Shown: positions 13,663 through 45,700 of the stretch, in pieces
Numbering within the stretch: the stretch's first letter is position 1
How the letters are laid out: each line of letters starts with the position of its first letter
Notes under the pieces: generated by a model
Told to the model about the DNA's origin: nothing
The model's input: only the letters and a program-made list of their open reading frames with translations
The model's database searches: none
Program-made: the position numbers and the translations under genes
Source: Planctomycetota bacterium
GTDB taxonomy: Bacteria > Planctomycetota > UBA8108 > SXIK01
Assembly: GCA_965223265.1 (NCBI GenBank)
Contig: OZ244999.1
Span: 2,048,001 to 2,112,000 of the forward strand
DNA length: 64,000 nt
Reading direction: 5' to 3'

Positions 13663-14592
13663 CCCCGATGTTGCAAAAGAAAAGCGCTTCAAGGCGATGC
13701 GCGATTGCGTGTGCGTGTGCGTGTGCGTGGGAGTGGGAGTGGGAGTGGGAGTGGGAGTGTGCGTGGGAGTGGGAGTGTGCGTGGGAGTGGGAGTGGGAGT
13801 GGGAGTGGGCGTGTGCGTGTGCGTGTGCTGAAAGTAGCAGGCACACTCCCGTGTGCCGTCCGGTCTTGTGTGAGCGTGAGCGTGTGCTGAAAGTAGCAGG
13901 CACACTCCCGTGTGCCGTCCGGTCTTGTGTGTGAGCGTGGGCGTGAGCGTGAGCGTGTGCGTGTGCGTGTGCGTGTGCGAGGGCGTGTGCGTGTGCGTGT
14001 GCGTGTGCGTGTGCGTGTGCGTGTGCGTGTGCGTGTGCGTGTGCGTGTGCGTGTGCGTGTGCGTGGGCGTGTGCGTGTGCGTGGGCTGAAAGTAGCAGGC
14101 ACACTCCCGTGTGCCGTCCGGTCTTGTGCGTGTGCGTGTGCGTGTGCGTGTGCGTGTGCGTGTGCGTGTGCGTGTGCGTGTGCGTGTGCGTGTGCGTGTG
14201 CGTGTGCGTGTGCGTGTGCGTGTGCGTGTGCGTGGGCTGAAAGTAGCAGGCACACTCCCGTGTGCCGTCCGGTCTTGTGTGTGAGCGTGGGCGTGAGCGT
14301 GAGCGTGAGCGTGTGCGAGGGCGTGGGCGAGGGCGTGTGCGTGTGCGTGGGCGTGGGCGTGTGCGTGGGCGTGGGCGTGGGAGTGTGCGTGGGAGTGTGC
14401 GTGGGAGTGTGCGTGGGAGTGTGCGTGGGAGTGTGCGTGGGAGTGTGCGTGGGCGATCGAAGACCGGTTCTCTGCGTCTGGCTCCGTATCTGTATCTGTA
14501 TCTGCCTCCGTATCTGCATCTGACTCTGATTCTGACTATTCTGCCTCTGCCTCTGCCTCTGCCTCTGCCTCTGACGCCGTATCTGCATCTGT
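13663..14592 (+). repeat. Composite repeat locus A: conserved leader, GTGnGn hexamer tract with four 44-bp REP units, TCYGnn hexamer tract
   Basis: Leader CCCCGATGTTGCAAAAGAAAAGCGCTTCAAGGCG at 13663-13696; GTGCGT/GTGGGA/GTGAGC hexamers to about 14454; TCTGCC/TCTGTA/TCCGTA hexamers about 14470-14592. Confidence 0.9.
13827..14279 (+). repeat. Array of four identical 44-bp GTAG-type REP-like hairpins
   Basis: GCTGAAAGTAGCAGGCACACTCCCGTGTGCCGTCCGGTCTTGTG at 13827, 13886, 14085 and 14236; palindrome GGCACAC/GTGTGCC preceded by GTAG. Confidence 0.85.
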
Positions 14593-14720
14593 CTGGGTAC
14601 GTCCGAACTACGTCCGTGTCCGCCGCCCTTTCCGAAGGACCAAGACCTCGGCGATCAACCGCGATCGGAACCGATCGCACCTCGCCTTTGTGATACACAC
14701 GTCGTGTCATCCGTGGCATC

Positions 14721-16010
14721 ATGCCGCGCATGAAGAGCTTCTCTTTCGAGCCCGGACTTCTGCAGGAGCCGCCCGTTTTCACCGTGACACAAGTGACGGG
14801 CGCGCTGCGTGAGACGCTCGAAGAGGCGTTTCCGTACGTGCGCGTCCAAGGTGAGATCTCGAATTTTTCGCGGCCGCAGTCTGGGCATCTTTACTTTTCC
14901 CTTGTGGACGACGCCGCCAGCGCCGGGACGTCGCGGATGGCGTCCGCGCAGCTGCCATGCGTGATGTGGCGTTCGTCGGCGTCGCGGTTGAAGTTTCGTC
15001 CGGAGAATGGTGTTCGGGTCGTCGTTGCCGGTCGGCTAACGGTCTATGAGCCTCGCGGCACGTATCAGCTCGTGGCAGATCGTCTGCAACCGGTCGGCCT
15101 CGGCGAGCTGCAGCGTCGATTCGACGCGTTGAAGGAAGACCTCTATCGCGAAGGTCTCTTTGCCGCCGAACGCAAACGGCCCCTGCCGCGCTGGCCGGCG
15201 TGCATCGGGCTGGTAACCTCTCCCACTGGAGCCGCGATACGAGATTTTCTCCGCATCCTGTTCCAGCGCCATCCACGTGCCTGGGTGCGTGTTGTTCCCG
15301 TACGCGTTCAGGGCGATGGCTCGGCCTCGGAGATTGTCGCTGCGCTCGACGTGCTCAACCGTTCGGGATCGCCGGTTGACGTGATCGTTGTGACGCGCGG
15401 CGGTGGCAGCCTGGAAGATCTCTGGTCGTTCAATGAAGAGCCGGTCGCGCGTGCGATCGCGGCAAGCGCCGTACCCGTCGTTTCAGCGATAGGACACGAG
15501 GTCGACTATACGATCGCGGACTTCGTCGCCGACGCCCGCGCGCAAACTCCGACCCATGCGAGCGAGTTGGTCGTGCCAGACGTTAGTGAGGTGACCGAAA
15601 GGCTTGGGGCGACGCTACGCCGGCTTCACCTTGCCGCCGGTGGTATCGTCGCGCGCCGCCGCGAGCGGGTCGACGAGAGGCTCCAGTCACGTACATTCGC
15701 GCGACCCGTCGAGATGTTGGCGAGGCGGGCGGAGTACGTGGACCAACTTTTCGACAAACTCGACAGTGGCCTTCAACGGTGGCTCGTTCGCCAAGAGCAT
15801 GAAATTCAAGCACTTGCTGGTCGACTGGGGGCATTGGATCCACGAAGAGTCTTGGCGCGAGGTTATGCGAAAGTGACCAATGCGGATGGAGAGATAGTCC
15901 TGAACGCTCGACAAGTGAAGATCGGCGAGCTTGTCGCCGTCGAACTGGCCTCTGGTCGAATCGAGGCGCGTGTCGAGTCGAACGGCGACGCATCGGAGTT
16001 TGCTGAATGA
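14721..16010 (+). CDS. xseA: Exodeoxyribonuclease VII large subunit
   Basis: [47 protein letters not shown] motifs. Confidence 0.96.
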
Positions 16011-16360
16011 GTGAGCCGGAACAAAGTCCCTACACATCGTTTGAAGAAGCGTTTGAGGCGGCAGAGAACGCAAGCGATCGACTCGAGCGCGGCGACCTAA
16101 CTCTCGAGGCGAGCTTGAAAGAATACGAACGCGGCGCACGTGCTCTGCGTGAGTGTTATCGGATGCTCGAGACGGCGCAATCACGGCTGGAAGTGCTGCG
16201 CTCGGAGACGCGAAGTGACGGAAACGATTCAGACAGCGCAGCATGGGTTGTCGCCAAACCATCTGGGCCGTTGGAAGAGGTGCTTCGGCATTTGGGGCAG
16301 GAGGGGGAAACGCCTCAGAGCGACGGTGCTTCAGAGGCAGGAAGGATCGTCAAAGAATGA
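16007..16360 (+). CDS. xseB: Exodeoxyribonuclease VII small subunit
   Basis: SFEEA..LERGDLTLEASLKEYERG motif; overlaps the xseA stop. Confidence 0.88.
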   Translation: MSEPEQSPYTSFEEAFEAAENASDRLERGDLTLEASLKEYERGARALRECYRMLETAQSRLEVLRSETRSDGNDSDSAAWVVAKPSGPLEEVLRHLGQEGETPQSDGASEAGRIVKE

Positions 16361-16489
16361 CGAGATTTCCTTGTCTTCTGGCAGATGCGAACTATTATTC
16401 TTCGTTTGAACTTGCAGCGACGGCCCGGCGGCCGCAACGGCCGGCCAGTGAGCTTGTCGATTGAGCTGAGTTCGAAGAGGAGCCCGCTC

Positions 16490-18514
16490 ATGCCTGATGT
16501 CCTGTCTCGTGTCGATCATCCTCATGATCTGCGCGGACTCTCGATCGCGGAGCTTGAACAGCTCGCTACAGAGATTCGCCAGCGGATTATGGAGGTCGTC
16601 AACGTCAACGGGGGGCACCTGGCGTCCAATCTCGGCATGGTCGAACTGACGCTGGCGCTTCATCGCGTCTTCGATCTGCCTCACGATCGTCTCGTTTGGG
16701 ACGTGAGTCATCAGACGTACCCCCACAAATTGCTCACGGGGCGTAAGGATCGATTTCATCTTCTCCGCAAATACAACGGGATTAGTGGGTTCTGCAACAA
16801 ACGCGAGAGCGTCTTCGATCTCTTCGACGCTGGTCACGCGGGTACGGCGGTGTCGCTCGGACTCGGCGTCGCCGTTGCCGACCACCTTCTCGGTCGGCGA
16901 AGTAAGACGATTGCGGTAGTTGGCGATGCAGCGATTGCCGCCGGCATGGCATTTGAAGCGCTGAACCATGCCGGCGAGCTGAAACGCGACTTCATGGTCG
17001 TGCTCAACGACAATCGAATGTCGATCGACGTCTCGGTGGGGGCGCTGTCGAAGTACCTGAACAAGCTGCGCACAAAGCCCAAGTACCAAGATCTCAAGAA
17101 GGATATGCACGACGTCTTGTCGCGCATTCCGGTGGTCGGCAAACGGATGGAAGGGACGCTCGACCACGTTCGGGAGTCGATCAAGCATTCGTTTGTGCCT
17201 GGACTGATTTTTCAGGAGCTTGGTTTCAACTACTACGGGCCGGTCGACGGACACGATCTTTCGGGACTGCTGCAAGTTTTCGAGGATTTGAAACAGCAGA
17301 GCGCTCCGATTCTCCTGCACCTTCACTCGGTGAAGGGGTGCGGCTACGATCCCGCGACGAACGATCCGGTCAAGTACCATGCTCTGAAGGGCTTTCTCAA
17401 GAAAGACACCGTCGGCGACAAGAGCGACGAGACGGACAAGACCGACAAGACCGTCAAGCCGGAGACAGCGGCGCCGCCGAAGCCGCGTCAGGTGATGTAC
17501 TCCGACGTCTTCGCGGAAACGCTGATCGAAGCCGCGCGCAAGGATCGGCGCTTGGTGGCGATCACGGCCGGCATGCCTGGCGGGACAGGGTTGACGGCGT
17601 TCGCCAAAGAGTTTCCAGAACGTTACTTCGACGTCGGCATCGCGGAGCAGCATGGCGCCGCAGTCAGCTCTGGGATGGCGTACGGCGGCTTGAAGGCCGT
17701 GTTCGCCGTCTACTCAACGTTTTGCCAGCGTGCGTACGACCAGTTCGTGCATGACGTTTGCATTCAAGAGAATCCGGTCATCCTCTGCCTGGATAGGGCT
17801 GGTCTGGTCGAGGATGGATGGACGCACCATGGCGTGTTCGACATCGCCTACATGCGCTGCATTCCGAACTGTATTTTGATGGCGCCCAGAGACGCCGAAG
17901 AGTACGTGCGAATGTTCCAGCTGGCTCTTGAGCAGACCGACAAGTGCGTCGCGATACGATACCCCAAGGCCGCGGTGCCGAAACTGCCCTCGAGTCGTGA
18001 GCCGCAGCTCGTCCTTGGCAAAGCCGAAACCCTTCGACAGGGCGAAGGCGTGGCGATCCTCGCCTACGGTGCGATGGTCGAGTTGGCCTACCAAGCTGCT
18101 TCTGAGCTCGAGCAAGGCGGTGTTGATGTTACCGTCGTCAATGCTCGATTTGCTAAGCCCTTCGACACGGACCTTCTGTGTCGACTCGCGCCGCGGCACC
18201 ACAGCTTGATCACGATCGAGGAGCATGCGCTCGCCGGTGGTTTTGGCAGCGCCGTCCTCGAGCACATTGCCGATCTCAACTTGTCGTTCTCGCGCGTGGT
18301 CCGTATGGGCGTGCCGGATCACTTTCAGAACATCGGCGCGCGTGAGCACTTGCTTCAGGACTGCGGGCTGACGGTCGAGAACATCGTGAGCTCCGCTCGC
18401 GAGCTTCACAGTGGCAGCGAGTCGACCCTGCCAACGGCGCAGAGACCGGTTCGAACCAGCGGCGCTGAGGCTTCAGGGCGGAGTCGGTCGGACCTTTCAT
18501 CGCCGGTTCGGTGA
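16490..18514 (+). CDS. dxs: 1-deoxy-D-xylulose-5-phosphate synthase
   Basis: [39 protein letters not shown]; RBS-supported ATG at 16490. Confidence 0.96.
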
Positions 18515-18564
18515 GGCTCACCCCACGGATCTTCGCGCGAACCATCTTTCTGGAGCAGCACCGC

Positions 18565-19020
18565 ATGCGCGCCGTCGTCCAGCGGGTGAATCACGCCGAA
18601 GTGACAGTTGGCGGTGCGTGCACCGGAAAGATCGAGCGTGGTCTTCTTGTCTTTCTTGGTATCGGCCGGAACGACACCGATGACGACGTCCGCTACTTGG
18701 CTGAAAAAGTAGTCGACTTGCGCATCTTTCCCGGCGCGGACGGCAAGTCGATGCAGCGGTCGCTTCGAGACTTGTCCGGCGGCGAGGTGCTGCTTGTCTC
18801 TCAGTTCACGCTCTATGGTGATTGCCGCAAGGGCCGGAGGCCAAGTTTTGACGCTGCCGCGCAACCCGAGACTGCCAAGACTCTTTACAGGGGATTCGCG
18901 GCGGCTTTGACCGCGAGAGGATTTCCGCCGCAGGAAGGAGTCTTCGCTGCGCAGATGTTAGTGTCGCTGGAAAACGACGGGCCAGTGACCATTCTTCTCG
19001 ACAGCGAACGGACTTTCTGA
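18565..19020 (+). CDS. dtd: D-aminoacyl-tRNA deacylase
   Basis: [26 protein letters not shown] motifs. Confidence 0.95.
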
Positions 19021-19088
19021 AACCGAACCACCGCCGCAGTAGAATCTCGTGCGAAATCCCGGCTGAGATAGTCTAATAGTCATAGCCT

Positions 19089-19919
19089 ATGCCCACCGCC
19101 ACCGCCTCTCCACGCAACTACTATGAGGTCTTGAACGTCTCGCCGCATGCGAGCCTTGACGATATCCGTCGCGCGTTCAAGCGGCAGGTCATCGAGGCTC
19201 ATCCGGACAAGAATCCTGAGCGGCGCGACTGGTCGGAGCGGCGCGTTCGAGAGCTCATTCAGGCGTACGAGATCATCGGCAAGGCGGACTCTCGTGAGCG
19301 TTTCGACCGTGAGTATCGAGCCTACAGCCGCATCCGTCGTAAGCGAGGATTGCAGCGACCGTTCTTTTTCGACCGCACTGATCCGGGGTCGCGCGCACTG
19401 TTGATCCTCCACCATCTCGGCCGCCAGGAATCGGACCGTGCGGTGGATCTCGTCTGGGAGATGGAAACGCGGCTTGGTGGCCGATTCCTTGAGGACTACC
19501 TCGATCGCAGTGACTATCTCGACTGTCTCTTTTTGCTCGCCGAGCATCACGTGCTGCGGCGGCAGTTCCGAGAAGCTTTCAACCGTCTGCGAGAGTTCTA
19601 CCTCGAAGACCGCGATGCGGTCAATCGACGCCATTACTTTGACCAAGTGGTTGATCGACTCAAGGATCTCTACCTCCGAAAACTCCCGCCCGTTGTCGCC
19701 TCGCAGGAGATACCGCGACTGATGCGTGAAGTCGAAGGCCTTGGTCTGACGAAAGCAGAAGAGAAGCTTCGCTTGCGGCGCCTCGCGGAAGCGCATGTCG
19801 ATAGTGGAAATCTGCAGGCTGCCCGCTCGGTGATCGGGGTTCTGCGTAGCACGTTTCCCAAGGCGAAGGAAATCGAAAAGATCGAGAGTCTGCTCTCGCG
19901 TCGCGAGCGTTCCGCTTGA
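19089..19919 (+). CDS. J-domain protein with helical (TPR-like) C-terminus
   Basis: NYYEVLNV..HPDKN J-domain; no zinc finger. Confidence 0.8.
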   Translation: MPTATASPRNYYEVLNVSPHASLDDIRRAFKRQVIEAHPDKNPERRDWSERRVRELIQAYEIIGKADSRERFDREYRAYSRIRRKRGLQRPFFFDRTDPGSRALLILHHLGRQESDRAVDLVWEMETRLGGRFLEDYLDRSDYLDCLFLLAEHHVLRRQFREAFNRLREFYLEDRDAVNRRHYFDQVVDRLKDLYLRKLPPVVASQEIPRLMREVEGLGLTKAEEKLRLRRLAEAHVDSGNLQAARSVIGVLRSTFPKAKEIEKIESLLSRRERSA

Positions 19920-19948
19920 CGTGACGTGCACTCGTTTGGAGTGGAGAA

Positions 19949-21058
19949 ATGAACGACACCCTGCACATGCATGCGGTGATCATGGCCGGGGGGTCGGGAA
20001 CTCGTTTCTGGCCGCTGAGCCGTAAGAATCTTCCGAAGCAGTTTCTTGCGCTCACCAGCGAGAAGAGTCTCTTGCGCGAGACGTATCTGCGTCTTCGGGA
20101 AGTCGTCAGCGCCGACCGCATCTGGGTCATCGCCAACGCGCATCACGTCGACCTCGCGCGTTCGGAGCTGCCGGAGGTGCCACCGGAGAACATCATCGGC
20201 GAGCCGGTGGGCCGCAACACGGCTCCGTGCATCGGTCTGGCCGCGGCGTGCGTCGCGGCGAAGGATCCCCAGGCACGACTGCTCGTTTGCCCTGCTGATC
20301 ACAGCATTCGGCCAGTGCCTGAGTTTGCCAGCAGTGTCGCCACGGCGCTCGCGGCCTTGGATCAGCTTGAGACAGAAGATGAGCCCTTCACCGTCACCTT
20401 TGGGATCAAGCCGCACTATCCTGCAACTGGATTCGGCTACATCGAACGAGGCGAAGGGATTCGCGTTGCCGGTGAAGACGCCGGCGTCTTTTCAGTCTCC
20501 AAGTTCAAGGAAAAACCGAGCTCGGACGTGGCGCGCGAGTATATCGACAGTGGCAGCTTCTACTGGAACTCGGGGATCTTTCTCTGGCGTGCTGGCGGCA
20601 TTCTTCAGCTGATCGAGACGCACCTGCCCGAGCTGTCTGCCGGGATCGACCTGCTCTCTCAATCGGGTCTCGAGCCGGCCGATTTGCAGACCACGCTCGA
20701 CGAGCATTTCGCTCGTTTGCCCTCGATTTCGATCGACTACGGGGTTCTAGAGAAGACACCGAGCGTTGCCGTTGTCGAGGCGACGTTCGAATGGGATGAT
20801 GTTGGATCCTGGAAGGCTGTTGAGCGCTATGCCACCGACGACGGCGCCGGTAACCATGTCATCGGTCGCCACGTTGGTATCGACACCGGGCGCTCCATCG
20901 TCGTCGCTGGGAAGCGACTTGTTGCCACGATCGGGCTCAGCGATGTCGTCGTCGTCGAAACGGATGATGCAGTGCTGGTCTGTCACCGCGACCACACTGA
21001 ACGGGTGCGCGAGGTTGTCGACTTGCTGCCGGAGTGCGGCGAGGAACAGCTGCAGTGA
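19949..21058 (+). CDS. manC: Mannose-1-phosphate guanylyltransferase
   Basis: MAGGSGTRFWPLSR..PKQF, EPVGRNTAP, FKEKP, WNSGIF, SIDYG, WDDVGSW. Confidence 0.93.
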   Translation: MNDTLHMHAVIMAGGSGTRFWPLSRKNLPKQFLALTSEKSLLRETYLRLREVVSADRIWVIANAHHVDLARSELPEVPPENIIGEPVGRNTAPCIGLAAACVAAKDPQARLLVCPADHSIRPVPEFASSVATALAALDQLETEDEPFTVTFGIKPHYPATGFGYIERGEGIRVAGEDAGVFSVSKFKEKPSSDVAREYIDSGSFYWNSGIFLWRAGGILQLIETHLPELSAGIDLLSQSGLEPADLQTTLDEHFARLPSISIDYGVLEKTPSVAVVEATFEWDDVGSWKAVERYATDDGAGNHVIGRHVGIDTGRSIVVAGKRLVATIGLSDVVVVETDDAVLVCHRDHTERVREVVDLLPECGEEQLQ

Positions 21059-21077
21059 GTGAAGCGGCGGGCGACGC

Positions 21078-21542
21078 ATGACGCGTCTTCTCGGCATTGA
21101 CCACGGTGACAAACGGATCGGGCTGGCGCTCAGCGATGAACTGCAGCGGATCGCTACGCCGCATGGAGTCGCGCACGGCGAGGCGGAGTTGGGGCGCGAA
21201 ATAGAGCGACTCATTCGTGACGAGTCGCTCGTCGGTTTAGTCGTTGGACTACCGCTCAATATGGATGGTAGCGCGGGTCCCAAGGCGCGTCAGGTGCTCG
21301 AGTTTGTCGAGCGACTGAAGCAGCGATTCGACTTGCCCGTTGAGACCATCGACGAGCGACTGACGAGCGTCCAGGCCGAGTCCATGCTCCGCGACATGGG
21401 GGTGCCGCCAAAGAAGCGAGCCGCCCGGATCGATCAGGTTGCGGCGCAGATCATCCTGCAGGATTTCCTCGACGCGCAGGCCCGGCGGCGACAAGGCGGC
21501 GACGGACCCACGGACGCTTCCGGACTCGCGGATTGCCCTTAG
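21078..21542 (+). CDS. ruvX: RuvX/YqgF (pre-16S rRNA nuclease)
   Basis: LGIDHGDKRIGLALSD, VVGLPLNMDG, DERLTS, DQVAAQIILQ. Confidence 0.93.
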   Translation: MTRLLGIDHGDKRIGLALSDELQRIATPHGVAHGEAELGREIERLIRDESLVGLVVGLPLNMDGSAGPKARQVLEFVERLKQRFDLPVETIDERLTSVQAESMLRDMGVPPKKRAARIDQVAAQIILQDFLDAQARRRQGGDGPTDASGLADCP

Positions 21543-21792
21543 ACGTTTACACCCTGAGCTTTACGTTGTTCCCCGAGCTTCGAGATGTCACTACAAAGGG
21601 TGGAAAAAGAGTGGTTTTCACCGCTCCGCGGTGGTGTTAGGATATGGGGCTTGTTCGATCACCGGGATAAAGAGGACGCGCGAGCCTGGCTATCTCGCTG
21701 GTTGTAGGTGTGACCGCGGGCGTCCGTGAGCGGGGGCTCAACGTCCAGGCCTCGAAATCCTAAGCACAGGAATTTTAATCAAACTGGTCTCA

Positions 21793-22062
21793 ATGAGCTT
21801 GACCAAAGAGGAATCAGCACGCATTCGCGGCGAGTACGCCCGCAAGCAGAACGACAGCGGATCGCCCGAAGTTCAAGTCGCACTCTTGAGCGCCCGCATC
21901 AAGAGCATCACCGAGCACCTCAAGAGCCACAAAAAGGACCATGCGTCCCGTCGTGGACTTCGCATGCTCGTCGGTCGGCGATCGAAACTTTTGCGCTATC
22001 TGTCACGCAAGAATTTCGATCGTTACCGTAACCTGATCGAGTCGCTTGGCCTGCGCCGGTAG
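21793..22062 (+). CDS. rpsO: 30S ribosomal protein S15
   Basis: [28 protein letters not shown]. Confidence 0.98.
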
Positions 22063-22655
22063 AGCCAACGAAGCTGCGCGTCCTCGGCACAAGCGCGCGC
22101 TCAGGCGACAATGCCCGACTCTGTGTCTCTCCACAGAGACGGCGTCCGGCGTTCTGGGTGACGGGCTGCGGCTGCCTCGCAGATTCGCGTCGCGTCACGA
22201 ACTCCCTTATCGGGCGTTCGTACGCCGTCGCTGCGGGTGGCAGAAGCCGACTGGCAGAGTGAGCCGGCCAGCCTTGATCGGAGACTCGCTGCGCATCCGA
22301 GTGAGAAATCTGTTGAGCCTGCGGCTGAGGCCCAAAATGTGCCGAAGATAAGGCGATGAGATGTGACGTTATAGGCAACAGATGCCGCCAACGGAGTTCA
22401 TCGCAAGGAGGTGAAACGGACGAAAATCCCTGACCGGCTGGGCGGTCTGCTGAAGAATAAGAATCAAAGATGCGGCCTTAAGGAACTGTCACGAGGCCAA
22501 GATGTTTCCCGCCGTCTGCGGGCGTGTCCGCCGTTTGCTGCGACGTCTCTCAGCTTTGGAGTCGCTGCGCCGTTCGGACCATGAGGCGACCTGTGCGTTG
22601 AGTCGGGTGGATCCGACTCCTCAGGTCGAAGAGGTTGAAAGCAGGTTAGATCAAG

Positions 22656-24770: not shown

Positions 24771-24784
24771 TACTTTTTCGACAG

Positions 24785-24831
24785 CCGGAGGGGGCGGTGG
24801 CGCCTTTGGGCCACCGCCCCCTCCGGTTTTT
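24785..24831 (+). terminator. Rho-independent terminator of pnp
   Basis: 17-bp stem CCGGAGGGGGCGGTGGC / GCCACCGCCCCCTCCGG followed by TTTTT. Confidence 0.9.
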
Positions 24832-25014
24832 CCGTGTCCTTGAGGCGGAGAAGGAGACGGAGCTTGCCACGTTCAGAGACCCACGAGAGCGTGCCTGCTG
24901 TTTGAGCGATTACGCCGACGCAATCGCAATCGTTCACGCCCACTGGCGCAGCCTCATCGGAAACGCAAGGGATTGCGCCCGCCGCGAGCGCAGCGGGCGC
25001 ATGGGCTCGCACGC

Positions 25015-25338
25015 TCAGCGAGTCAGCCCGCGAAGAAGTGCGAGCAGACGATCAAGCGTCTCGAGAGACGTCGTGACGTCGTCGCCTCTCAGATCGCCCC
25101 AGGCCAGAGCCAGTCGTAGCGCGGTCTCGACCTCGCGCGCACTGCCGCGCGCGACGCGAAAGAGGTGCTGGCGATCTTTCCCAGCGCGCTCGGCGCCTTC
25201 CGAGAGGTTGAGCGCCACCGAAGAAGCAGCGCGCCGAAGCTGCCGATGCAGATCGGGATCGAGCCGCCGAAGCCGCGCCAAAGGAACTCGCAAATCGCCA
25301 ATCAAAGCGAGACTGACATCGAGAGCGATGAAACGCAT
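25015..25338 (-). CDS. Four-helix-bundle protein (23S rRNA IVS-protein / Avd-like family)
   Basis: 107 aa, with QLRRAASSVALNLSEG..F.VARGSAREV..L family motif; GGAGG RBS upstream of ATG 25338. Confidence 0.88.
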   Translation of the reverse strand: MRFIALDVSLALIGDLRVPLARLRRLDPDLHRQLRRAASSVALNLSEGAERAGKDRQHLFRVARGSAREVETALRLALAWGDLRGDDVTTSLETLDRLLALLRGLTR

Positions 25339-25417
25339 GTGAAGCCTCCGCAGAAAAAGTGAGTCGAAAGCCCGCCACGTCCGAGCGGCGGTACTGCACC
25401 CCCCAACGCGGAGCGGA

Positions 25418-25472
25418 GGGGCAGTCAAGGGCGCGAAGCGCCGAGCGCAGCGAGGGCACCCTTGACTGCCCC
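25418..25472. repeat. 14-bp inverted repeat hairpin upstream of the four-helix-bundle gene
   Basis: GGGGCAGTCAAGGG (25418-25431) / CCCTTGACTGCCCC (25459-25472). Confidence 0.8.
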
Positions 25473-25520
25473 GAGCACCGCGTACACTCGACAATGACCG
25501 CCGCCGTACGGTGACCCCTG

Positions 25521-25707
25521 CTACAGAAGCAGAGGCGGAGACAGAGGCAGAAGCAGCGTCAGAAGCAGATACGGATCCAGAGACGGAGACGGGCCGCCCA
25601 CGCCTACGCCCACCCACACGCCCACGCACTCGCCCACGCACTCGCCCACGCACTCGCCCACGCACTCGCCCACGGCCTTGAAGCGCTTCTTGTTCGCGAC
25701 AATGGGG
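25521..25707 (-). repeat. Composite repeat locus B: leader, GTGnGn tract, TCYGnn tract
   Basis: Minus strand: leader 25707-25674, (GTGGGCGAGTGC)n and hexamers to about 25596, TCTGCC/TCCGTC-type hexamers about 25592-25521. Confidence 0.85.
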
Positions 25708-33769: not shown

Positions 33770-33798
33770 GCTGATCGTTTGACGACTGAGTAGACGTT

Positions 33799-34862: not shown

Positions 34863-35007
34863 ACGCGTCGTCGCCTATTGAGCGATTGCAGGCGAGCCAC
34901 AGCCGTAGTTGTCGCCCGCGGCTTTTCGGAAAAGAGTTTCGTTCGACCGCACCGCGCCTCAGAATAGTTGAGAGGTCGAGGAGGTGCGTCGTTGAAGGTG
35001 TCATCCA

Positions 35008-38000: not shown

Positions 38001-38220
38001 TGTCGCCGTTCTCAACTGGCTTTTCCGCTCCGCGCCGGAGCTCGCTTGCCCCGACGCCGGTGACTTCGACGACCGCGACGACATCGAACCGGCCGACGCC
38101 ATCCTGATCCTCAACTTCCTCTTCCAGAGCGTCGACTTGAGCACTCCGCCCGGCCCGTTCGACTGCGGCCCCGACCCAACGCCGGACGGCCTCGCGACGT
38201 GCAGTTACCCGGAGTGCTGA
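35008..38220 (+). CDS. Secreted PEP-synthase/dikinase-family protein (His-swivel + ATP-grasp) with dockerin-like tail
   Basis: Signal peptide; LSHVAIRTAR; FGGKATNLA; FRSSSNVED..GAGLY.S; KQIRP; tail FRRGDANTDG...CGPDPTPDGL. Confidence 0.8.
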   Translation: MLVKARPFVCAAFLLWASTPLTAQSSLERVETQAEFEAISIPDSDPQIDRVTKFLAPIDPADPSLLGLVFQNVSVFPFHVDYLRSLPQFAGLSDTEYRSLVETRATRKYYAGLLSLLLPPGQEPVFGFDVITANAEDFPDELLTQAEVKGIYEQLKSSFLLTPLAYAPQTREAIEAAAEWEPDPDLPVFLGTSDTPYIPYTQAVGFGFVRVWDADEFESAASRGLITFRDVLILERAPRDIEGVFAAVITDEKQGELSHVAIRTARRGTPNAFVRGATGIFQEFEDQLIRIEVGPADFEFRPAELPEAEEFWDANRPSLSVLPTIDADYAGLDALSEMDLSSEVNPVSRFGGKATNLARLRLYVDEPYKEEGFAIPARYYLQFVRENTMPSAIDPGRMVTYEEHLNELFTLPQFQNDAEFRFDALDDVRDHMRDFGRVDPQLVQRLVERIGEVFPSTTTMVRFRSSSNVEDDLEFNGAGLYNSTSVCAADQVDGNDSGPSLCDPLRDDERTIERGLKRVWRSLWNFRAYEEREFFQVPQDLSAMAILVSRAFLDERANAVAFTGNPSRPFDPRYLVVAQAGDEASVVSPEPGVISETSLLELSSEGEVVRIVRGQASSLVPEGEFVMSDEKLRELGAILWDLDQNFPLELGEHSRDEVLLDTEVKVEADGSLAIKQIRPFLLTISGPRPPTFVLDVPDGTETCGVWREGRSALKAHQLESRIQLRSGRFDLPAALENFAIDLVESVEVGPDRVPGVPVGEGVMNVQVRAGAQPGVVVYTFAFEQRFDVGGQELVVELARTLEAKDGVPAEPEWQLDEETIMLRLELEGFLAREGDSDTIRYRSCTHELLPINRIFVDLDGGHSLEIEERYELVNLGNSPADFVRAEVNLGGETRVVEDYTQLVYAAQRHNERVVAWIVLDPPVTVGADTVGAIELELEDFKNASPLYPPAARFLAPDFTVLRSVEIVRYCRQEPGKPCASDFRRGDANTDGRVNLSDAVAVLNWLFRSAPELACPDAGDFDDRDDIEPADAILILNFLFQSVDLSTPPGPFDCGPDPTPDGLATCSYPEC

Positions 38221-38500
38221 CGGCGCGTCCAGAGCAGATTTCGTCGGAGTGTGGCATCTGCCCGTTCGACGTGAGGCACGAGGAAAAACTCGCAGCCTCA
38301 CCGTCTGCAAGTCTCTCGCACTCGGGAACTCTCTCGTTCTCAGAATGGGCGGAGGCTCGAAAGCTCACTGAGAACGAGAATCTCTTCAACAACCTGACGA
38401 CTTCACATTTTCAGGTACCCGTCGCGTTGTAGAAAACCTGTGCTACGATCGATGGTCGGCCATCAAAACACGTACCAAGTCTTTGCGTGAGGGGGAGTCT

Positions 38501-39985
38501 ATGAAGGGACTCTGCGTGTGCTTTGCGATCGTCAGTTTCGGCGGCCTGCCGCTCGCGAGCTGGCGAGCGGCCACGGCCGCGCCGGCCGCCAGACCGTGGA
38601 GCGCGGACAGCTTTCAGGGTGACTTCAACAGCGATGGTCAACTCAGCGTCAGCGACGCCGTCTATCTTCTGAACTTTCTTTTTCGCGGTGGGAAGGACTT
38701 GCCGCGACTGCGCACGGCGCGGAGCTCGCTGCCGTCGACTGGCCAGCGGCACTGCTGGTCGGCGACTGGTGAATTGCTCTCACCCTGTCCCGGCCCCGGC
38801 GAGGATGACTACGGTCAGGACGCCCAGTTTGGAGTCGGCTATGAGCACGACTTCGAGCTCATCAAGGATGATCCCGAGGATCCCTCCACTTGGATCACGG
38901 TCGATCACGCCATGGGGTTCATGTGGACCTACACCGACGACGGTGAGCGCAGGTCTTGGCTCGACGCGCTTCATGCTGTCGAGGAACTGGAGCTCGGCGG
39001 GTTCACCGACTGGCGCATGCCGAACCTCTTCGAGCTGGTGTCGATCATCAATACAGGTGCCATTCTGGACGAGAACCGCAACGATGTGTTTCAAGTCGTG
39101 ACGTACGGAGAGTTTTTTTCCGTCGCTCGTGAGCTCTACTGGACTTCCACGACTTGCGCATCGAATACACGACGTGTCTATGCCGTGTCGTTCGACGAAG
39201 GGCGGGTTTTGTGCCCTGACAAGGGATTGGGGAGCGTGATCGATATTCGCCTTCCTAGCTTGTGGATTCGCTCTACTGATTCGTCACCACCGATCGAAAC
39301 AGTTCAAGGCGATGCTGACGGAGACGGTGATCTCGACGTCAACGATGCTCTCTTTCTCCTCGATTCTCTTTTCGCAGCTGGTGATCCTCTGCCGATGTTG
39401 CGTACTTCGGACCGTAGCCTGCCGTCGACCGGCCAGATGAACTGCTTCGTGATGCGTGGCATGCTACAGGCTCCGTGCCCGCAGCCAGGTACGCCAGGAT
39501 ATGGTCAGGATGGTCACTTTCGGCTTGGCTATGCACACGAGTTTGAACTTGTCCGAGATCGACCAGAGGATGCGTCGACCTGGTTCACAATCGACTATGC
39601 GACGGGACTCATGTGGAGCTACGGAGCCGACACTCAGCGTCGGAATTGGCGAGACGCGCTTCGACATGCTGCTGAGCTCGAACTGGGCGGATTCACCGAT
39701 TGGCGTCTGCCGACAATGCTAGAACTTGTGACCTTGCTGAATGCGGGTCAATCCGTGGACGAAGACGGCAATCTCGTATTCCGGCGAACGTCGAGCTACG
39801 AAGGAGTCTTCTCGCTCTTCCCTGGTCCTGACTATTGGACCGCCACGACGTGCTCTTTCCGGGCGAGCCGCACCTACACTCTCAATTTTTTCTCAGGAGG
39901 GCTCAAGTGTAGCGACAAGGGTAAAGACTTTTTTCCTTCTCTTCCGGTGCGCTCTCTTGGCCCAGCCGAAGGATCAACGCCGTAG
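38501..39985 (+). CDS. Tandem DUF1566 protein (two dockerin-loop + DUF1566 modules)
   Basis: Two copies of GDxxxDG..LPSTGQ..YGQD..GGFTDWR(M/L)P..YWT. Confidence 0.8.
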   Translation: MKGLCVCFAIVSFGGLPLASWRAATAAPAARPWSADSFQGDFNSDGQLSVSDAVYLLNFLFRGGKDLPRLRTARSSLPSTGQRHCWSATGELLSPCPGPGEDDYGQDAQFGVGYEHDFELIKDDPEDPSTWITVDHAMGFMWTYTDDGERRSWLDALHAVEELELGGFTDWRMPNLFELVSIINTGAILDENRNDVFQVVTYGEFFSVARELYWTSTTCASNTRRVYAVSFDEGRVLCPDKGLGSVIDIRLPSLWIRSTDSSPPIETVQGDADGDGDLDVNDALFLLDSLFAAGDPLPMLRTSDRSLPSTGQMNCFVMRGMLQAPCPQPGTPGYGQDGHFRLGYAHEFELVRDRPEDASTWFTIDYATGLMWSYGADTQRRNWRDALRHAAELELGGFTDWRLPTMLELVTLLNAGQSVDEDGNLVFRRTSSYEGVFSLFPGPDYWTATTCSFRASRTYTLNFFSGGLKCSDKGKDFFPSLPVRSLGPAEGSTP

Positions 39986-40205
39986 GTTCGGCCGTGGGAA
40001 AGCGGTCGAGGGAGGTCCACGCGCGGTGGAGCCCGGCCCGTGAAGTGCGTCGGGTTGCGCACGAGAGAGGCAAGCGGCGTGAGCGCGGATTTGACGACTC
40101 TGCGCTCCTCCGCATCCTGTGGTAGAAACTCTTCTACCGTAGAGGTAGGAAGAGTGGGGAGTTCGAGGGCGGCACGCCGCTGCAACGCTGACGCTACGCT
40201 CTTCC

Positions 40206-40317
40206 AAAGTAGTGGGCACACGCTGTGTACCGTCCGGCCGTGTGCGTGAGCGTGTGCGTCTCCCAAAGTAGCAGGCACACTCCGTGTGCCGTCCGGTCTT
40301 GTGACCGTGACCGTGAG
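40206..40317 (+). repeat. Two REP-like units of the locus A family with short hexamer spacers
   Basis: AAAGTAGTGGGCACACGCTGTGTACCGTCCGG (from 40206) and AAAGTAGCAGGCACACTCCGTGTGCCGTCCGGTCTTGTG (40265-40303), with GTGTGC/GTGAGC/GTGACC hexamers. Confidence 0.85.
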
Positions 40318-40438
40318 TTGCGACGGCAGTCTCAATGATTTCACAGTCTCGCCGTGTGCCGCCGGAGGTCCAGATCGAACCGAAGGAAGATCGGAACGGC
40401 ACTCGTCGTGAGCCTGCTACTTTGGGAGATCCGCGGCG

Positions 40439-42349
40439 TTAGTCAGCGCTCCGCGCACTCGCCGTTGTGCTCGACCGCTGATTTTGGATCGCCTCGACGA
40501 CCTGGTCGATCGTGTAGAAGTCGCTCTTGAAGACCTCATCGCCGCTCGGCGAGTAGATCACCAGGAGCGGGATGGTCAGACGCCCCGTTTCCTTGAGCTT
40601 CGCCTTGGCGGCGGGGTAGTTTCCCGTCAGATCGACCTTGATGGGGACGACGTCGGGTGCGGCGAGGAGACTCGCGACCCGCTGACTGTGCAGCACCGTC
40701 TCTTCGAGTGCCTTACAGTTGAGACACCACTCCGCGGTGAAGTCGACGACGACCACTTTCTTCTCTCCCTGCGCTGCTGCGAAGCGCTCCGGCGTGAAGT
40801 AGACCCACTCGATGGGGCCCGACTCGGTGAGCCGCACTGCGCCGCCGATCGACACGAGCATGATCACCACTCCGAGAGCGCCGTAGAGCATGCGCTTGAT
40901 CTTTCCCGGCGTGATCTGAAACGTGCGCCACGACAGCCAGAAGCCGGCGCAAAAGCTCAGCGCCATGACCATCCACCAGTAGGCCCGGCTGGGTGGATCC
41001 GGGGGCGTGTTGAGGAGCGCACTGAGGCCGACGCCGAGAAAGTAGGCTGCCGCCGCGAGCATGAGGAGGCCCATCACCTGCTTGATCAGCTCGCTGGCAG
41101 GTCCGCTACGCGGCATCTTCTTCACCAAGTCGGGAAACGCCGACAGAATCAAATAGGGCAGCGCCATGCCGACGCCGATCGCCGCAAACGTCGTCAGCGT
41201 CGTTGCCGCTTGCTGCGTTGCCGCCCAGGCCGCTGCTGCGCCCATGAATGGTGCTGTGCACGGCGTCGACAGCACCGCCGTCATGATGCCAAAGCCGAAC
41301 GAGCCGAGAATGGTGTCGTGCTTCGGCGTGATCTGGTAGACGAACGCCGGCAGGCGCAGCGAGAACACCCCGCACATGCCCACGGCCATGATCGCGATCA
41401 CGGCACCGACGGAGATCGTGAACAGAGGGTATTGGAAGAGCTGGTTGGTGGCAGAAAAGTCGGCCACCTTGGCGACGAGAAGCCCGAGGCCAAGCCAGAA
41501 CGCCACCACCCCGAGTGACATGGTCAGCCCGAGCGCGAAGCAGCGGGCGCGGTTGCCCGCCGCCTGGGAGAGCCCGATGATTTTGATCGGAATCACGGGG
41601 AGGACGCACGGCGTGAAGTTGAGCAGAAACCCGCCGAGTGCTGCGACCACCAACAGCAACAGGAAACCGAGTGAAGAGGCAGCGTCGATCTCGAACTTCC
41701 AGCCGAAGAGGTCGAAGCGCACGGTTTCTTTTGGTAGCTCGGCGGCTCTGTAGTCTTTGAACAGCTCTTCGTTGATTCGCGACACTACAGCGTCTGCAGC
41801 GACGATCTCGAGGGTGGCGGTGTGGCGCTCTGGCTTCGGAATGAGGCAATTGGTGTCGTCACACGCTTGAGACTCGATGTCGAGCGTGATGACCTGCTGG
41901 CCAGGCTTCGCGTCGTCGCCGACTCGCACCGGGAGATAACAGATCGTTCGCCCCGAGAACGAGTAAAGGTCGCCGTCCGCGTAATTCACTTTCACCGGGT
42001 GCGGCTTGGGAAAGCGTACCCGCTCGAGCGTCAACGCATCGCCGGCGTCAGCGACGTTGATCGACGTCGGGTAGGGCTCGAAGTCGCCTACTGGGACGAC
42101 CTGATGCTCGTCAGGGTTGATGTGATAGCCGGCCGCAATGTCAGCGACGATGGCGAGAACCACGGCGTCGCCCGGTCGTGCCTTGTCCTGGTTCCACTGG
42201 ACGCTCCACTGGACCGGATTTTCGGTCGGCTCCGTAGCCGCGGGCGTCTTCTTCTTACCGAGGATCAGCTGAGCCTCGAGCGGGTCGGCCGTCAGGCCGA
42301 AAAGGAACAGTCCGAGCACGAAGGGCAGAAAGCGATGGATGTTTTTCAT
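40439..42349 (-). CDS. DsbD-like thiol:disulfide interchange protein
   Basis: N-domain QACDDTNC; TM domain TPCVLP and TPCTAP; C-terminal thioredoxin FTAEWCLNCK. Confidence 0.88.
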   Translation of the reverse strand: MKNIHRFLPFVLGLFLFGLTADPLEAQLILGKKKTPAATEPTENPVQWSVQWNQDKARPGDAVVLAIVADIAAGYHINPDEHQVVPVGDFEPYPTSINVADAGDALTLERVRFPKPHPVKVNYADGDLYSFSGRTICYLPVRVGDDAKPGQQVITLDIESQACDDTNCLIPKPERHTATLEIVAADAVVSRINEELFKDYRAAELPKETVRFDLFGWKFEIDAASSLGFLLLLVVAALGGFLLNFTPCVLPVIPIKIIGLSQAAGNRARCFALGLTMSLGVVAFWLGLGLLVAKVADFSATNQLFQYPLFTISVGAVIAIMAVGMCGVFSLRLPAFVYQITPKHDTILGSFGFGIMTAVLSTPCTAPFMGAAAAWAATQQAATTLTTFAAIGVGMALPYLILSAFPDLVKKMPRSGPASELIKQVMGLLMLAAAAYFLGVGLSALLNTPPDPPSRAYWWMVMALSFCAGFWLSWRTFQITPGKIKRMLYGALGVVIMLVSIGGAVRLTESGPIEWVYFTPERFAAAQGEKKVVVVDFTAEWCLNCKALEETVLHSQRVASLLAAPDVVPIKVDLTGNYPAAKAKLKETGRLTIPLLVIYSPSGDEVFKSDFYTIDQVVEAIQNQRSSTTASARSAD

Positions 42350-42650
42350 GGCTGCAGATGAACGTTCGATCCAGGAGAGATAGTTCCCACCGACGGCGGC
42401 CAGTGTACCCGAACACCCGAGCAACGACAGCTGTCTCGTACCGCTTCACAGGATGTATAGTGGCCTCGGAAGGCCTTGGATTCGGAACGATCATCGCCGC
42501 TTCGAGGCGAAATCGCGTGAGCGACGGCCCGGAGGTGCCCATGCGCCCGGCTGGCACTGGGTGAACATTTGTTGTACACTTCCTCCTTCGGCCGCAGCCG
42601 AATAACGAACCTGTGAGGGCGGTGGAATCGCCCTCGAGTCGGAGGAAGAC

Positions 42651-42968
42651 ATGTCTCTCGAATTCAATGATGCCAACTTTCAGTCCGAGGTCCTCGATGC
42701 CGAGCAGCCGGTCGTGGTCGATTTCAGTGCTGCATGGTGCGGCCCGTGTCGGCAACTTGCGCCGATCATCGATGAGCTCGCTGATGAGTACTCTGGCAAG
42801 GTCAAGGTGGGCAAAGTGGATATCGACGATGCCCAGGAGACTGCCGGCAAGTACGGCATCATGAGTGTCCCGACCGTGCTCATCTTCAAGAGCGGCCAGC
42901 CGGTCGACCAGATCACTGGTCTCTTTCCCAAGAGTCAGTACAAGCAGAAGATCGACGCGCTTCTGTGA
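42651..42968 (+). CDS. trxA: Thioredoxin
   Basis: WCGPC active site, 105 aa. Confidence 0.96.
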   Translation: MSLEFNDANFQSEVLDAEQPVVVDFSAAWCGPCRQLAPIIDELADEYSGKVKVGKVDIDDAQETAGKYGIMSVPTVLIFKSGQPVDQITGLFPKSQYKQKIDALL

Positions 42969-43435
42969 GTGCCGGCGCCACGCGCAGCGCGGGGAGTGAC
43001 ATGGCAGGTCGCGAGCCTGAAGGGAATCGAGCGCAGGACACCGGTCGACCCGGCGTCCCGGCTGCGTCGAGCCTTCTCGAAACCCACTTTCTCGAGCCGC
43101 AGAATACGGGCGTGCTCGAGGGAGCCGACTGGAAGGTTCGCATTGAGAATCCTGTCTGCGGCGATTTGCTCGATCTTTATGTCCGGCGCGACTCGGAGCA
43201 GCGCATCGAGGCGTGTACGTTTCAGGTTTACGGCTGCCCGGCCGCGATTGCCGTCGGGTCATTTCTCTCTTCTTCACTTCAGGGCCGGAGCCTCGACGAC
43301 CTTGCGCAGTTCGATCAGGAGACGATCTCCACCGCCTTCGGGGGAATACCAGCGGCGCAGGTTCACGCCGCTCACCTTGGCGCGGACGCCGTTCGTGAAC
43401 TCGAACGCCTGTGGCGCCGGGGCGAAACCGAATGA
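42965..43435 (+). CDS. IscU/NifU-N-like Fe-S scaffold homolog
   Basis: HFLEPQNTG, NPVCGD and YGCPAAIA motifs. Confidence 0.8.
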   Translation: MSAGATRSAGSDMAGREPEGNRAQDTGRPGVPAASSLLETHFLEPQNTGVLEGADWKVRIENPVCGDLLDLYVRRDSEQRIEACTFQVYGCPAAIAVGSFLSSSLQGRSLDDLAQFDQETISTAFGGIPAAQVHAAHLGADAVRELERLWRRGETE

Positions 43436-44769
43436 CCGTCACGACGTGTGAACATGCCTCGCCGGACCAACCGTCAGCAAAGAAGTCGATGCCAGCGAAG
43501 AACATGATGCAGCCGATGGACGCGCTTCGTGAGCGTGGCCTCTTCCACCAGTCGACGGATGACGAGAGCGACGAGAAGCCTCTCGCCAAGCTCTTCAGTT
43601 CGAAGCGGGTGACGCTCTACTCTGGTTTCGACCCGACGGCGCCGAGCCTGACGATCGGGAATCTTGTGCCGACGATGATGATGGCGCATCTGCAGCGCGC
43701 CGGACACCGTCCGATCGCGCTGGTCGGCGGCGGCACCGGCCTTGTCGGCGATCCCAGCGGCAAGACCGAGATGCGACAGCTGCTGGCGACGGACGACGTC
43801 GAGCGCAATCTCGAGGCTCAGAAGGAGCAACTGGGGCGCTACTTGGATCTCAGCGGTGATCCTGAGGCTGACGACCAGTGTGGCTTTGTCGTCAACAACG
43901 CTGACTGGCTCGTCGAGCTGAACTATATCGAGTTCCTGCGGGAGATCGGCCGTCACTTCAGCGTCAATCGCATGCTCGCCGCCGAGAGTGTGAAGCAGCG
44001 AATAGAAAGTGCATCCGGGCTGTCGTTTCTGGAGTTCAACTATAGTCTCCTGCAGGCGTACGACTTCCTCGTTCTCAGCCGCCGATATGGCTGTGAGCTG
44101 CAGGTCGGAGGGGGCGACCAGTGGGGCAATATCGTTGCCGGAATCGATCTCATACGTCGTGCGGACGGGCGACGAGCTCACGCCCTCACCGCCCCTCTGC
44201 TGACGACTGCCAGCGGCCAAAAGATGGGAAAAACCGAAAAAGGCTCGGTTTGGCTCGATGCGACGCGCACATCCCCGTACGATTTCTACCAGTACTGGAT
44301 CAATTGCGACGACCGTGATGTGATCCGATTGCTGAGGACGTTTACGTTTTTGCCGTTCGAAGAGATCGCCGCGTTTGAAGAACTGGAAGGCGCCGATCTG
44401 CGGCAGGCGAAAGAAGTGTTGGCCTACGAAACCACAAGTCTAGCGCACGGCGAGGAGGAGGCGAAGAAAGCGCGCGCCGGGGCGCGCTCGCTATTCGGCG
44501 GTGGTGTGGCTGAAACCAAGGGGGCGCCATCCTTTGACGTCGAGTCCGCTCGTATCGATGCGGGCATCGGTGTGCTGGAGCTGGCAGCAGAAGCCGCGCT
44601 GTGTGAATCGAGAAACGCGGCACGTCGGCTGGCCCGTCAGGGTGGCCTTTACGTCAACGGCAACGCCGTAGCGGAGGACTACACTGTGACTGCGGCGGAC
44701 CTTGAGGATGGCGCTGTGCTACTCAGGGCCGGAAAGAAACGGTACCTACGTATCACGCTGTCTCAGTAA
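43432..44769 (+). CDS. tyrS: Tyrosine--tRNA ligase
   Basis: YSGFDPTAPSL, GDPSGK, LQAYDF, GGDQWGNI, KMGKT, S4 tail; exact start uncertain. Confidence 0.95.
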   Translation: MTVTTCEHASPDQPSAKKSMPAKNMMQPMDALRERGLFHQSTDDESDEKPLAKLFSSKRVTLYSGFDPTAPSLTIGNLVPTMMMAHLQRAGHRPIALVGGGTGLVGDPSGKTEMRQLLATDDVERNLEAQKEQLGRYLDLSGDPEADDQCGFVVNNADWLVELNYIEFLREIGRHFSVNRMLAAESVKQRIESASGLSFLEFNYSLLQAYDFLVLSRRYGCELQVGGGDQWGNIVAGIDLIRRADGRRAHALTAPLLTTASGQKMGKTEKGSVWLDATRTSPYDFYQYWINCDDRDVIRLLRTFTFLPFEEIAAFEELEGADLRQAKEVLAYETTSLAHGEEEAKKARAGARSLFGGGVAETKGAPSFDVESARIDAGIGVLELAAEAALCESRNAARRLARQGGLYVNGNAVAEDYTVTAADLEDGAVLLRAGKKRYLRITLSQ

Positions 44770-44913
44770 ACGCGCGAATCAATCATCGAGACGAGAGGCT
44801 CGAGTCGTTCGAGCCACCTGTCACACCGTCTCCCTCCGAGGATGTCAGCTGCGGCGCGACGACTCTCGCGAGAGAAGCGGGATTCATCATCGGGTCATCG
44901 AGGAGCACGGAGA

Positions 44914-45252
44914 ATGGAATACGAAGATAAGGTCATCGTTTGTGAGGACTGCCAGACGGAGTTCACACATTCGGGAGAGGATCAAGCACGCTACGCGAGC
45001 CGAGGCTTCACTTCGGATCCGAAGCGTTGCCGCGAGTGTCGTCAAAAGCGCAAAGAGAGGTCACAGCAAAGTCGCGGCGGGGGCGGTCCTCGGCGTGGCG
45101 GTGGTGGTGGCGGGGAGTTCGCAAGTCGGCGCCACCGCGAGGAGTTCGAGACGGTGTGCGCCGCCTGCGGCGTGACGACGACGGTGCCGTTCAAGCCGCG
45201 TGGGGACCGCCCGGTGTACTGCCGCGACTGTTTTCGATCGCAGAAGCAGTGA
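44914..45252 (+). CDS. Zinc-ribbon / CxxC-x17-CxxC domain protein
   Basis: CEDC..F..PKRCREC and CAACG...VPFKPRGDRPVYCRDCF. Confidence 0.88.
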   Translation: MEYEDKVIVCEDCQTEFTHSGEDQARYASRGFTSDPKRCRECRQKRKERSQQSRGGGGPRRGGGGGGEFASRRHREEFETVCAACGVTTTVPFKPRGDRPVYCRDCFRSQKQ

Positions 45253-45260
45253 GGCGGTGG

Positions 45261-45700
45261 GAGGCGGAGACGGAGACAGAGGCGGAGACGGAGACAGAGA
45301 CAGAGGCGGAGACAGACCCTACAGTTGCATAGATTTCTCGCCGGAAGATCTCGGAAGCTCTTGTTCTACGGCTCGATCCGCGGTTGTGGGACGTCGCGGC
45401 AGACTTCACGTTTGGTGAGGTTTCCCGGAGTGCCTGCTCTACCGCCAACGCTCACCCACACACCCTCACACCCGCACTCTCTCACGCCCACCCGCTCACG
45501 CCCCGCACTCGCCCTCCCACTCGCTCACGGTCTTGAAGTGTTTCTCTTTTGCAACATTGGGGACAAAGGCGGAAGGCTCGCACGCCCGCGCAAACGCAGA
45601 TTACCACGCTTACGCAAACGTACACTCCCACACACGCCCACTCGCACTCCGACTCCCACGCAAACTCCCCTCGCGCTCTCCCCGGCCCACGCTCGCTCCT
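45261..45700 (-). repeat. Composite repeat locus C (degenerate)
   Basis: Minus strand: degenerate GTGnGn hexamers about 45700-45578, leader 45562-45529, GTGnGn tract to about 45450, TCTGTC/TCCGCC hexamers about 45317-45261. Confidence 0.8.

Follow-up and report, generated by a model that had tools for sequence, protein, structure and literature searches.

Three leader-and-hexamer-array loci of a Planctomycetota genome as probable local samples of a wider intergenic repeat mosaic

The 64,000-nucleotide stretch analysed here (the window; positions 2,048,001 to 2,112,000 of contig OZ244999.1) belongs to the closed genome of a Planctomycetota bacterium (9.18 Mb, 60.8% G+C) and contains three intergenic loci, A, B and C, at which a conserved leader precedes two successive arrays of hexamers. 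A reading made from the sequence alone had taken these for one composite element in three copies. The leaders at 13663 (+), 25707 (-) and 45562 (-) were recovered with the positions and sequences quoted in that sequence-only reading, as were the identities it reported, 28/34 between A and C and 26/34 between A and B (B and C also share 26/34). The layout of leader, GTGnGn array and TCYGnn array was present in all three loci by Tandem Repeats Finder (TRF) and pattern scan. Missed at that stage were four 42-nt units within the first array of locus A, a 142-nt module before leader A and a 117-nt tail between the two arrays of locus C. We consider it probable that the three loci are local samples of a lineage-specific four-layer intergenic repeat mosaic and not one element in three copies.

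Arrays were delimited by TRF together with the pattern scan, with GCGTNN or GTGnGn units defining G-type arrays and TCYGNN units defining S-type arrays. The dispersed modules, namely the leader (L), the tail (T), a repetitive extragenic palindromic (REP) unit (R) and module M, were counted by nhmmer. The features of the three loci are as follows.

Locus A
13520..13661 (+): module M, about 140 nt, AT-richer, with a REP-like hairpin at its end; directly upstream of leader A (nhmmer)
13659..13710 (+): leader L, copy A (the 34-mer is 13663-13696), of a subfamily usually without tail
13701..14458 (+): G-type array in four blocks with polar unit order (TRF, pattern scan)
13830..13871 (+): REP unit 1 (GTAG and 7-bp hairpin), co-oriented with the array
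13889..13930 (+): REP unit 2
14088..14128 (+): REP unit 3
14239..14280 (+): REP unit 4
14471..14592 (+): S-type array, upstream of xseA (14721-16010)
Locus B
25660..25707 (-): leader L, copy B
25598..25669 (-): G-type array of 12-mer GTGGGCGAGTGC units (TRF, pattern scan)
25522..25587 (-): S-type array, ending at the start of the four-helix-bundle cassette leader
25339..25521 (-): type I cassette leader, about 180 nt, conserved, with a long hairpin; also upstream of other type I copies
25015..25338 (-): four-helix-bundle gene, 107 aa, type Ia (PF05635, E 7.9e-13; TIGR02436, 48.9 bits, cut-off 24)
24900..25014 (-): cassette 3' flank with a post-stop hairpin, two GATTGC units and a REP-like remnant
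Locus C
45317..45562 (-): complete L-g-T unit (leader, G array, tail), 246 bp, with ends CCCCAATGTTGCA and, as reverse complement, CCCTACAGTTGCA (genome 2093317/2093562)
45516..45566 (-): leader L, copy C, the left end of the element
45446..45515 (-): internal G-type array, degenerate (hexamers delimited at 45446-45499; TRF extends them to 45529)
45318..45434 (-): tail T, 117 nt, the right end of the element (nhmmer)
45263..45316 (-): S-type array flanking the element; begins 8 nt past the stop of a zinc-finger gene (44923-45252, +)
45632..45667 (-): degenerate G-type units upstream of the element and downstream of a terminator (45773-45748)

The leader is not confined to these three loci. Fuzzy search recovered 61 copies from the genome and nhmmer 70 (E<=1e-4), which replaces the claim of three copies with a genome-wide family. 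A leader 24-mer at up to three mismatches matched this genome 45 times and its reversed control 0 times; a 28-nt leader core at the same tolerance gave one match in the window, with 0 expected from shuffles. The 24-mer search gave 0 matches in 40 relatives, none of the same genus. Although 70 metagenome contigs matched a degenerate leader 19-mer, 0/70 continued as a leader and none matched T, R or M, and these hits were rejected as chance. The nhmmer copies lying in predicted genes were 2/70 for L, 0/49 for T, 0/331 for R and 1/32 for M, and overlap with predicted genes was seen for 100/369 G tracts (under a loose pattern definition) and 32/182 S tracts.

Junctions between modules at most 60 nt apart were counted genome-wide. 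L ran into a G array at 42 junctions, with 1 against; G was followed by S in the same polarity at 60 of 65, with 5 against; G was followed by T at 29; and REP units were co-oriented with their G array in 154 cases versus 4. The argument that these loci are not independent microsatellites is borne out, the leader, G array and S array keeping a fixed polarity throughout the genome. Anchoring of the arrays by the leader is not, since only 42 of the 369 pattern-defined G tracts adjoin a leader. The units within a G array are also ordered, GCGATT and GCGTTT being concentrated towards the 5' end and GCGTGG towards the 3' end. When each array was compared with its own TRF consensus under motif-blind rotation, the GCG of G arrays and the C.GA (equivalent to TC.G) of S arrays mismatched in no more than 2% of units and others in 10-35%, a difference in variability of more than 10-fold between positions. 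S arrays carried their purine strand on the leading strand in 147/209 cases and G arrays showed no clear bias. By GC skew, replication would start near 7.9 Mb and end near 3.5 Mb. Adenine mutagenesis of the kind found in a diversity-generating retroelement (DGR) was considered as a source of the GTGnGn and TCYGnn units and dropped; it does not accommodate units such as GATTGC and GTTTGC, and no DGR-type reverse transcriptase is adjacent.

One unit recurs among the leader flanks, consisting of a leader, a short G array and a 126-nt tail, with S arrays outside it, and the order s L g T s, among others, was found repeatedly in the genome. A co-oriented tail lies within 1500 bp of 33 leaders. The multicopy L-g-T unit spans about 197-572 bp among the end pairs located and holds no open reading frame (ORF), and the terminal 13 nt of L and of T form imperfect inverted repeats (CCCCAAYGTTGCA vs CCCKACAGTTGCA, the latter as reverse complement). 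Target duplication was scored in 27 of the 33 copies, the 6 that could not be anchored at both ends being omitted. The flanking 5-mers were identical in 15/27 copies and agreed at four or more of five positions in 21/27. The mean match of 3.93 compares with 2.65 for permuted left and right pairs, and the maximum among 5000 permutations was 3.28, indicating more than a target preference. Perfect 5-bp duplications with a non-array flank were seen, for example, in the copies at 219534, 779170 and 743397, and at locus C the flanks TTTGT and TCTGT are identical at 4/5 positions. The base preceding the unit is C in 25/27 copies, so that the element begins CCCC. In five paralogous gene-pair cassettes L-g-T lies within the intervening S array, in one orientation in three and in the other in two. 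Judged by these features of its sequence, L-g-T is best explained as a non-autonomous transposon resembling a miniature inverted-repeat transposable element (MITE), of which the leader would be the left end. The composite non-autonomous element proposed earlier thus stands as far as the leader is concerned, with its inverted ends and target duplication, and falls for the S array, which is flank or target and lies outside the element. Nested inside one leader (genome ~779009-779204) was another small element, different from L-g-T, which measures about 190 bp, has inverted ends of its own and is flanked by TTAA.

Leaders A and B fall in a subfamily in which T is mostly absent and junctions with M are frequent (M>L>, L>M>, L M R L), the M>L> adjacency of locus A being one that recurs. 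The array-plus-cassette junction of locus B occurs at three further places without L, and its 3' flank is common to paralogous copies at 749573, 6976310 and 9046080; the region equivalent to its cassette leader in another copy folds with a z score of -4.4. We infer that loci A and B are recombined or truncated derivatives, and the tailless leaders, A and B among them, would be truncated transposons. Beside locus A lies a single-copy gene for an IS110-family RNA-guided transposase (12281-13426, -; NF033542, 217.8 bits), whose upstream region continues into module M and the leader. This gene was rejected as the owner of M because it is single-copy and M homology starts about 100 nt away (at 13524 by blastn, independent of the gene). 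A perfect 14-nt tandem repeat, CAACTGCTTTGCCT, present in 4.6 copies at 11503-11566, lies between an 805-aa ORF and the IS110 gene.

The four 42-nt units of locus A are members of the REP family, in which GTAG accompanies a 7-bp hairpin, GGCACAC/GTGTGCC, with compensatory variants; they match the definition of GTAG REPs in the relevant passages of PMC3733652. Residence of REPs in G arrays accounts for the four interruptions of locus A. PF01797 (Y1_Tnp) has a single match in the genome, an ORF of about 215 aa with an HVH motif (27.3 bits, cut-off 23). Three REPs lie upstream of this ORF and nine inverted REPs downstream, an arrangement that agrees with the description of the REP-associated tyrosine transposase (RAYT) in sections of PMC3337134. 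The HUH/RAYT association raised by the sequence-only reading applies to the REP units embedded in locus A and not to the leader itself. Neighbouring REPs were on the same strand in 69 pairs versus 45 inverted. Head-to-tail REP arrays with a 59-nt period (a REP and three hexamers) and up to 19 units were also observed at 1672742-1674021 and 4207190-4207647, which is unusual for GTAG REPs. Two further tandem REPs in the window (40206-40244 and 40265-40303, +) lie away from the three loci.

PF05635 matched 39 places in the genome, 36 of them over cut-off, comprising 19 intact type I and 17 intact type II translations of 107 aa and 3 decayed copies. Arrays or modules lie within 900 bp of all 39 genes, and an array of at least 36 bp lies within that distance of 36/39 compared with 377/5882 genes overall (6%). 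Read in gene sense, both sides of a type II gene show S arrays in their purine strand followed by G arrays in their C strand, and a type I gene has G arrays in their G strand upstream and S arrays in their pyrimidine strand downstream. All consequently share a single G-then-S polarity. Seven convergent type I/II pairs were found. A four-helix-bundle gene lies within 900 bp of just 9/64 leader loci, so that the suggested partner protein fits the arrays and not the leader. In our judgement the order of the tracts stems from a scaffold that extends across the genome and is linked to the four-helix-bundle genes. The cassette arms in this genome are direct and polar, not inverted, and the folds showed leader and terminator hairpins but no stem enclosing the ORF. 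A 2.7-kb repeat in six copies of 97-99.8% identity, one at 7186418-7189154, encodes a large serine recombinase of 702 aa (with Resolvase, Recombinase and Zn ribbon domains). It abuts type I genes at the same point of the type I cassette leader in each copy, which suggests a site-specific mobile element targeting the cassette hairpin.

The identical G-then-S polarity around four-helix-bundle genes, and the joining of locus B to a cassette, would also be expected if L, G and S together were gene-less remnants of such cassettes, spread by duplication and recombination, with the inverted ends and target duplication being incidental. We regard this as rather unlikely. Apart from the hexamers, blastn found nothing homologous between L or T and the cassette leaders. 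The evidence from the inverted ends and the duplication statistic stands, cassettes that are otherwise paralogous carry the element in both orientations, and few leader loci lie near a four-helix-bundle gene, as noted above.

The association of gene and array was followed into other genomes. Among the 40 relatives, close four-helix-bundle homologues were found in G007 (17) and G017 (5), and only these two also hold the GTGGGC array pattern. Period-6/7 arrays, including GAGACA, were present at 9/11 of their gene loci versus 9/30 ABC-transporter control loci, the latter figure showing that arrays are generally common in these two genomes. GAGACA arrays adjoin homologues of these genes in a different family of the same order. 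The complete genome G001, of the same family and without a homologue, had 0 period-6 arrays in 540 kb, where about 11.5 would be expected at the density of this genome. A four-helix-bundle match was obtained in 164/301 sampled genomes of the phylum, and 11/30 gene loci of that sample had abutting 7- or 8-nt arrays, usually as inverted arms; in a conservative control, arrays anywhere in the locus were counted in 5/30 ABC-transporter loci (five positive genomes). A tblastn search of a plasmid collection with the type I protein gave no match, and a related-locus search of genome contigs gave one locus, in a deltaproteobacterial metagenome-assembled genome, with a (GGCGTC)15 array. In the literature searched, no paper linked these genes to flanking microsatellites apart from the heptamers of PMC4990558.

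A different mechanism would have the leader bring in or prime an enzyme that appends GTGnGn units, such as a reverse transcriptase acting with an Avd-like four-helix-bundle protein; passages of PMC10053308 present the four-helix-bundle proteins as Avd homologues. G arrays do start directly at the leader 3' end at the 42 junctions, show a 5'-to-3' gradient of unit types and vary from 24 to about 750 bp after leaders. Most G arrays are, however, leaderless, and the same polarity begins after cassette hairpins and REPs, while in the main leader subfamily the internal array is nearly fixed at 42-54 nt. The suggested co-occurrence with a reverse transcriptase did not materialise, as none adjoins any of these loci: RVT_1 gave four equal-scoring ORFs of 449-455 aa (1895554, 3424405, 3516453 and 5913461), none of which adjoins a leader or any of the 39 four-helix-bundle genes. 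These four ORFs represent a multicopy retroelement, possibly a group II intron. We find such leader-primed expansion hard to credit.

Little more can be said for the leader as a promoter, or as the 5' end of a non-coding RNA with a hexamer-array body such as a protein-sponge RNA. The leader keeps a dyad by paired changes (GAAGC/GCTTC to GAGGCG/CGCCTC) and the arrays have invariant cores, both of which would suit an RNA. However, a sigma-70 promoter scan of the three loci gave 0 sites, no Rfam match in the window reached its gathering threshold (two cassette loci gave just an ar14 match below it), and the L-g-T fold is not unusual (z -1.45). The loci are moreover enriched between convergent genes, in either orientation (134/409, 33%, versus 17% of all intergenic gaps), and locus C itself lies between convergent genes, behind a terminator. 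This explanation is accordingly most doubtful.

Contigs from four public runs of one study, possibly including the source sample, reproduced the locus B leader and the start of its G array; the runs listed as containing this sequence include none of RNA. A 14.6-kb contig stops at 25645 within that array and contigs break inside the cassette; array lengths are those of the assembly and unverified, because no public contig spans any array. Chance resemblance or an assembly artefact can be dismissed as extremely improbable, for, although no read or contig spans any array, 0 chance matches were expected, 70 copies share a fixed grammar, and leader and array start recur in contigs from the four runs.

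We therefore return to the four-layer mosaic as the reading we prefer. Its first layer would be the polar scaffold, a G array passing from GATTGC/GTTTGC to GTGGGC units and then an S array, which also flanks the 39 four-helix-bundle genes. The second would be L-g-T, with inverted ends in L and T, an internal G array that may expand and contract, and a duplicated 5-bp target; it appears to insert mostly into S arrays and in either orientation, locus C being a complete copy. In the third layer the leaders of A and B type, tailless and joined to M and the G-then-S scaffold, likely arose by recombination between arrays. The fourth would consist of the GTAG REPs lying in one orientation in G arrays, probably mobilised by the single RAYT-like HUH gene. 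Observed directly are the number of copies, the module order with its polarity, the inverted ends and target duplication of L-g-T, the arrangement of REPs around the RAYT-like gene and the link of arrays to four-helix-bundle genes. Transposition of L-g-T in trans by a transposase, growth of the arrays by slippage or unequal exchange, and loss of tails by recombination are the processes that may have produced this arrangement.

Several observations weigh against this account. Within arrays a 5-bp duplication is indistinguishable from in-phase insertion, and the duplication signal rests on the permutation test and the copies with non-array flanks. Some L-g-T copies are segmental duplicates and hence not independent. 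About half of the leaders, A and B included, have no tail. An autonomous element with matching ends was looked for and not found, as no inverted end pair 600-6000 bp apart in this genome convincingly encloses a transposase, so that mobilisation is inferred. The RAYT-like protein scores 56 bits against NF047646, below the equivalog cut-off of 80, and aligns with positions 46-131 of the 146 in the profile. All counts in or near genes depend on our own crude gene caller, and none of the 40 relatives belongs to the same genus.

On the function of the arrays we can offer a tentative reading of the sequence. With an invariant core of 3-4 nt and a variable spacer in every 6 nt, they could be, instead of neutral microsatellites, multivalent recognition arrays for oligomeric four-helix-bundle proteins; a solved Xanthomonas member of the family is a homopentamer, as cited in text of PMC4990558. 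Arrays and type I or II genes would then form self-propagating cassettes of protein and binding site, a free-living counterpart of the ORF-bearing intervening sequences of rRNA genes, with L-g-T and REPs as secondary colonists. This possibility is raised because of the more than 10-fold difference in variability between positions, the strict polarity, the GAGACA arrays in another family and the repeat-flanked genes found across the phylum.

The locus illustrates how two unrelated kinds of miniature mobile DNA can use microsatellites as insertion sites, and it adds a case from bacteria in which constraint on the array units differs from one position to the next. Pattern-defined arrays and modules, about 58 kb in all, would otherwise be annotated as spurious ORFs. 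The four-helix-bundle family is among the commonest small bacterial genes without known function, and its 36 intact copies here, of two subtypes in fixed orientation to two array types, amount to a natural experiment on protein-repeat recognition.

Among known systems, bacterial MITE families with 4-5-bp duplications and CC ends exist, and L-g-T resembles MITEs in being small (about 210-600 bp), free of ORFs, present in many copies, bounded by imperfect terminal inverted repeats and flanked by a short duplication of the target. It differs in holding an expandable hexamer array and nested REPs, in its preference for insertion into another microsatellite, and in that no matching autonomous partner is present. 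Pneumococcal BOX elements, composed of boxA, variable copies of boxB, and boxC, are likewise modular mosaics, in which conserved modules at the ends enclose internal repeats of variable number, whereas the internal unit here is 6 nt as against about 45 nt and the ends are inverted repeats with a target duplication. Unlike a diversity-generating retroelement, the Avd-like genes of this genome have no reverse transcriptase next to them. With the GTAG REP/RAYT systems and bacterial interspersed mosaic elements, as set out in parts of PMC3733652 and PMC3337134, the REPs share the unpaired GTAG, the 7-bp stem, hundreds of extragenic copies, a single REP-flanked RAYT-like gene and clusters reiterated with flanking DNA; they differ in that most run head-to-tail and lie within G-type hexamer arrays, in the same direction as the array. 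The ORF-bearing intervening sequences of 23S rRNA genes encode the same protein family (S23p/four-helix-bundle), and portions of PMC4990558 describe for them border hairpins and short, strain-variable tandem heptamers just upstream of the homologous ORF; their heptamer GACAGAT has the CAGA core in common with the purine strand of the S arrays. Here, in contrast, there are 39 intergenic copies, and the arms are two kinds of hexamer in direct polar order, with no inverted stem enclosing the ORF.

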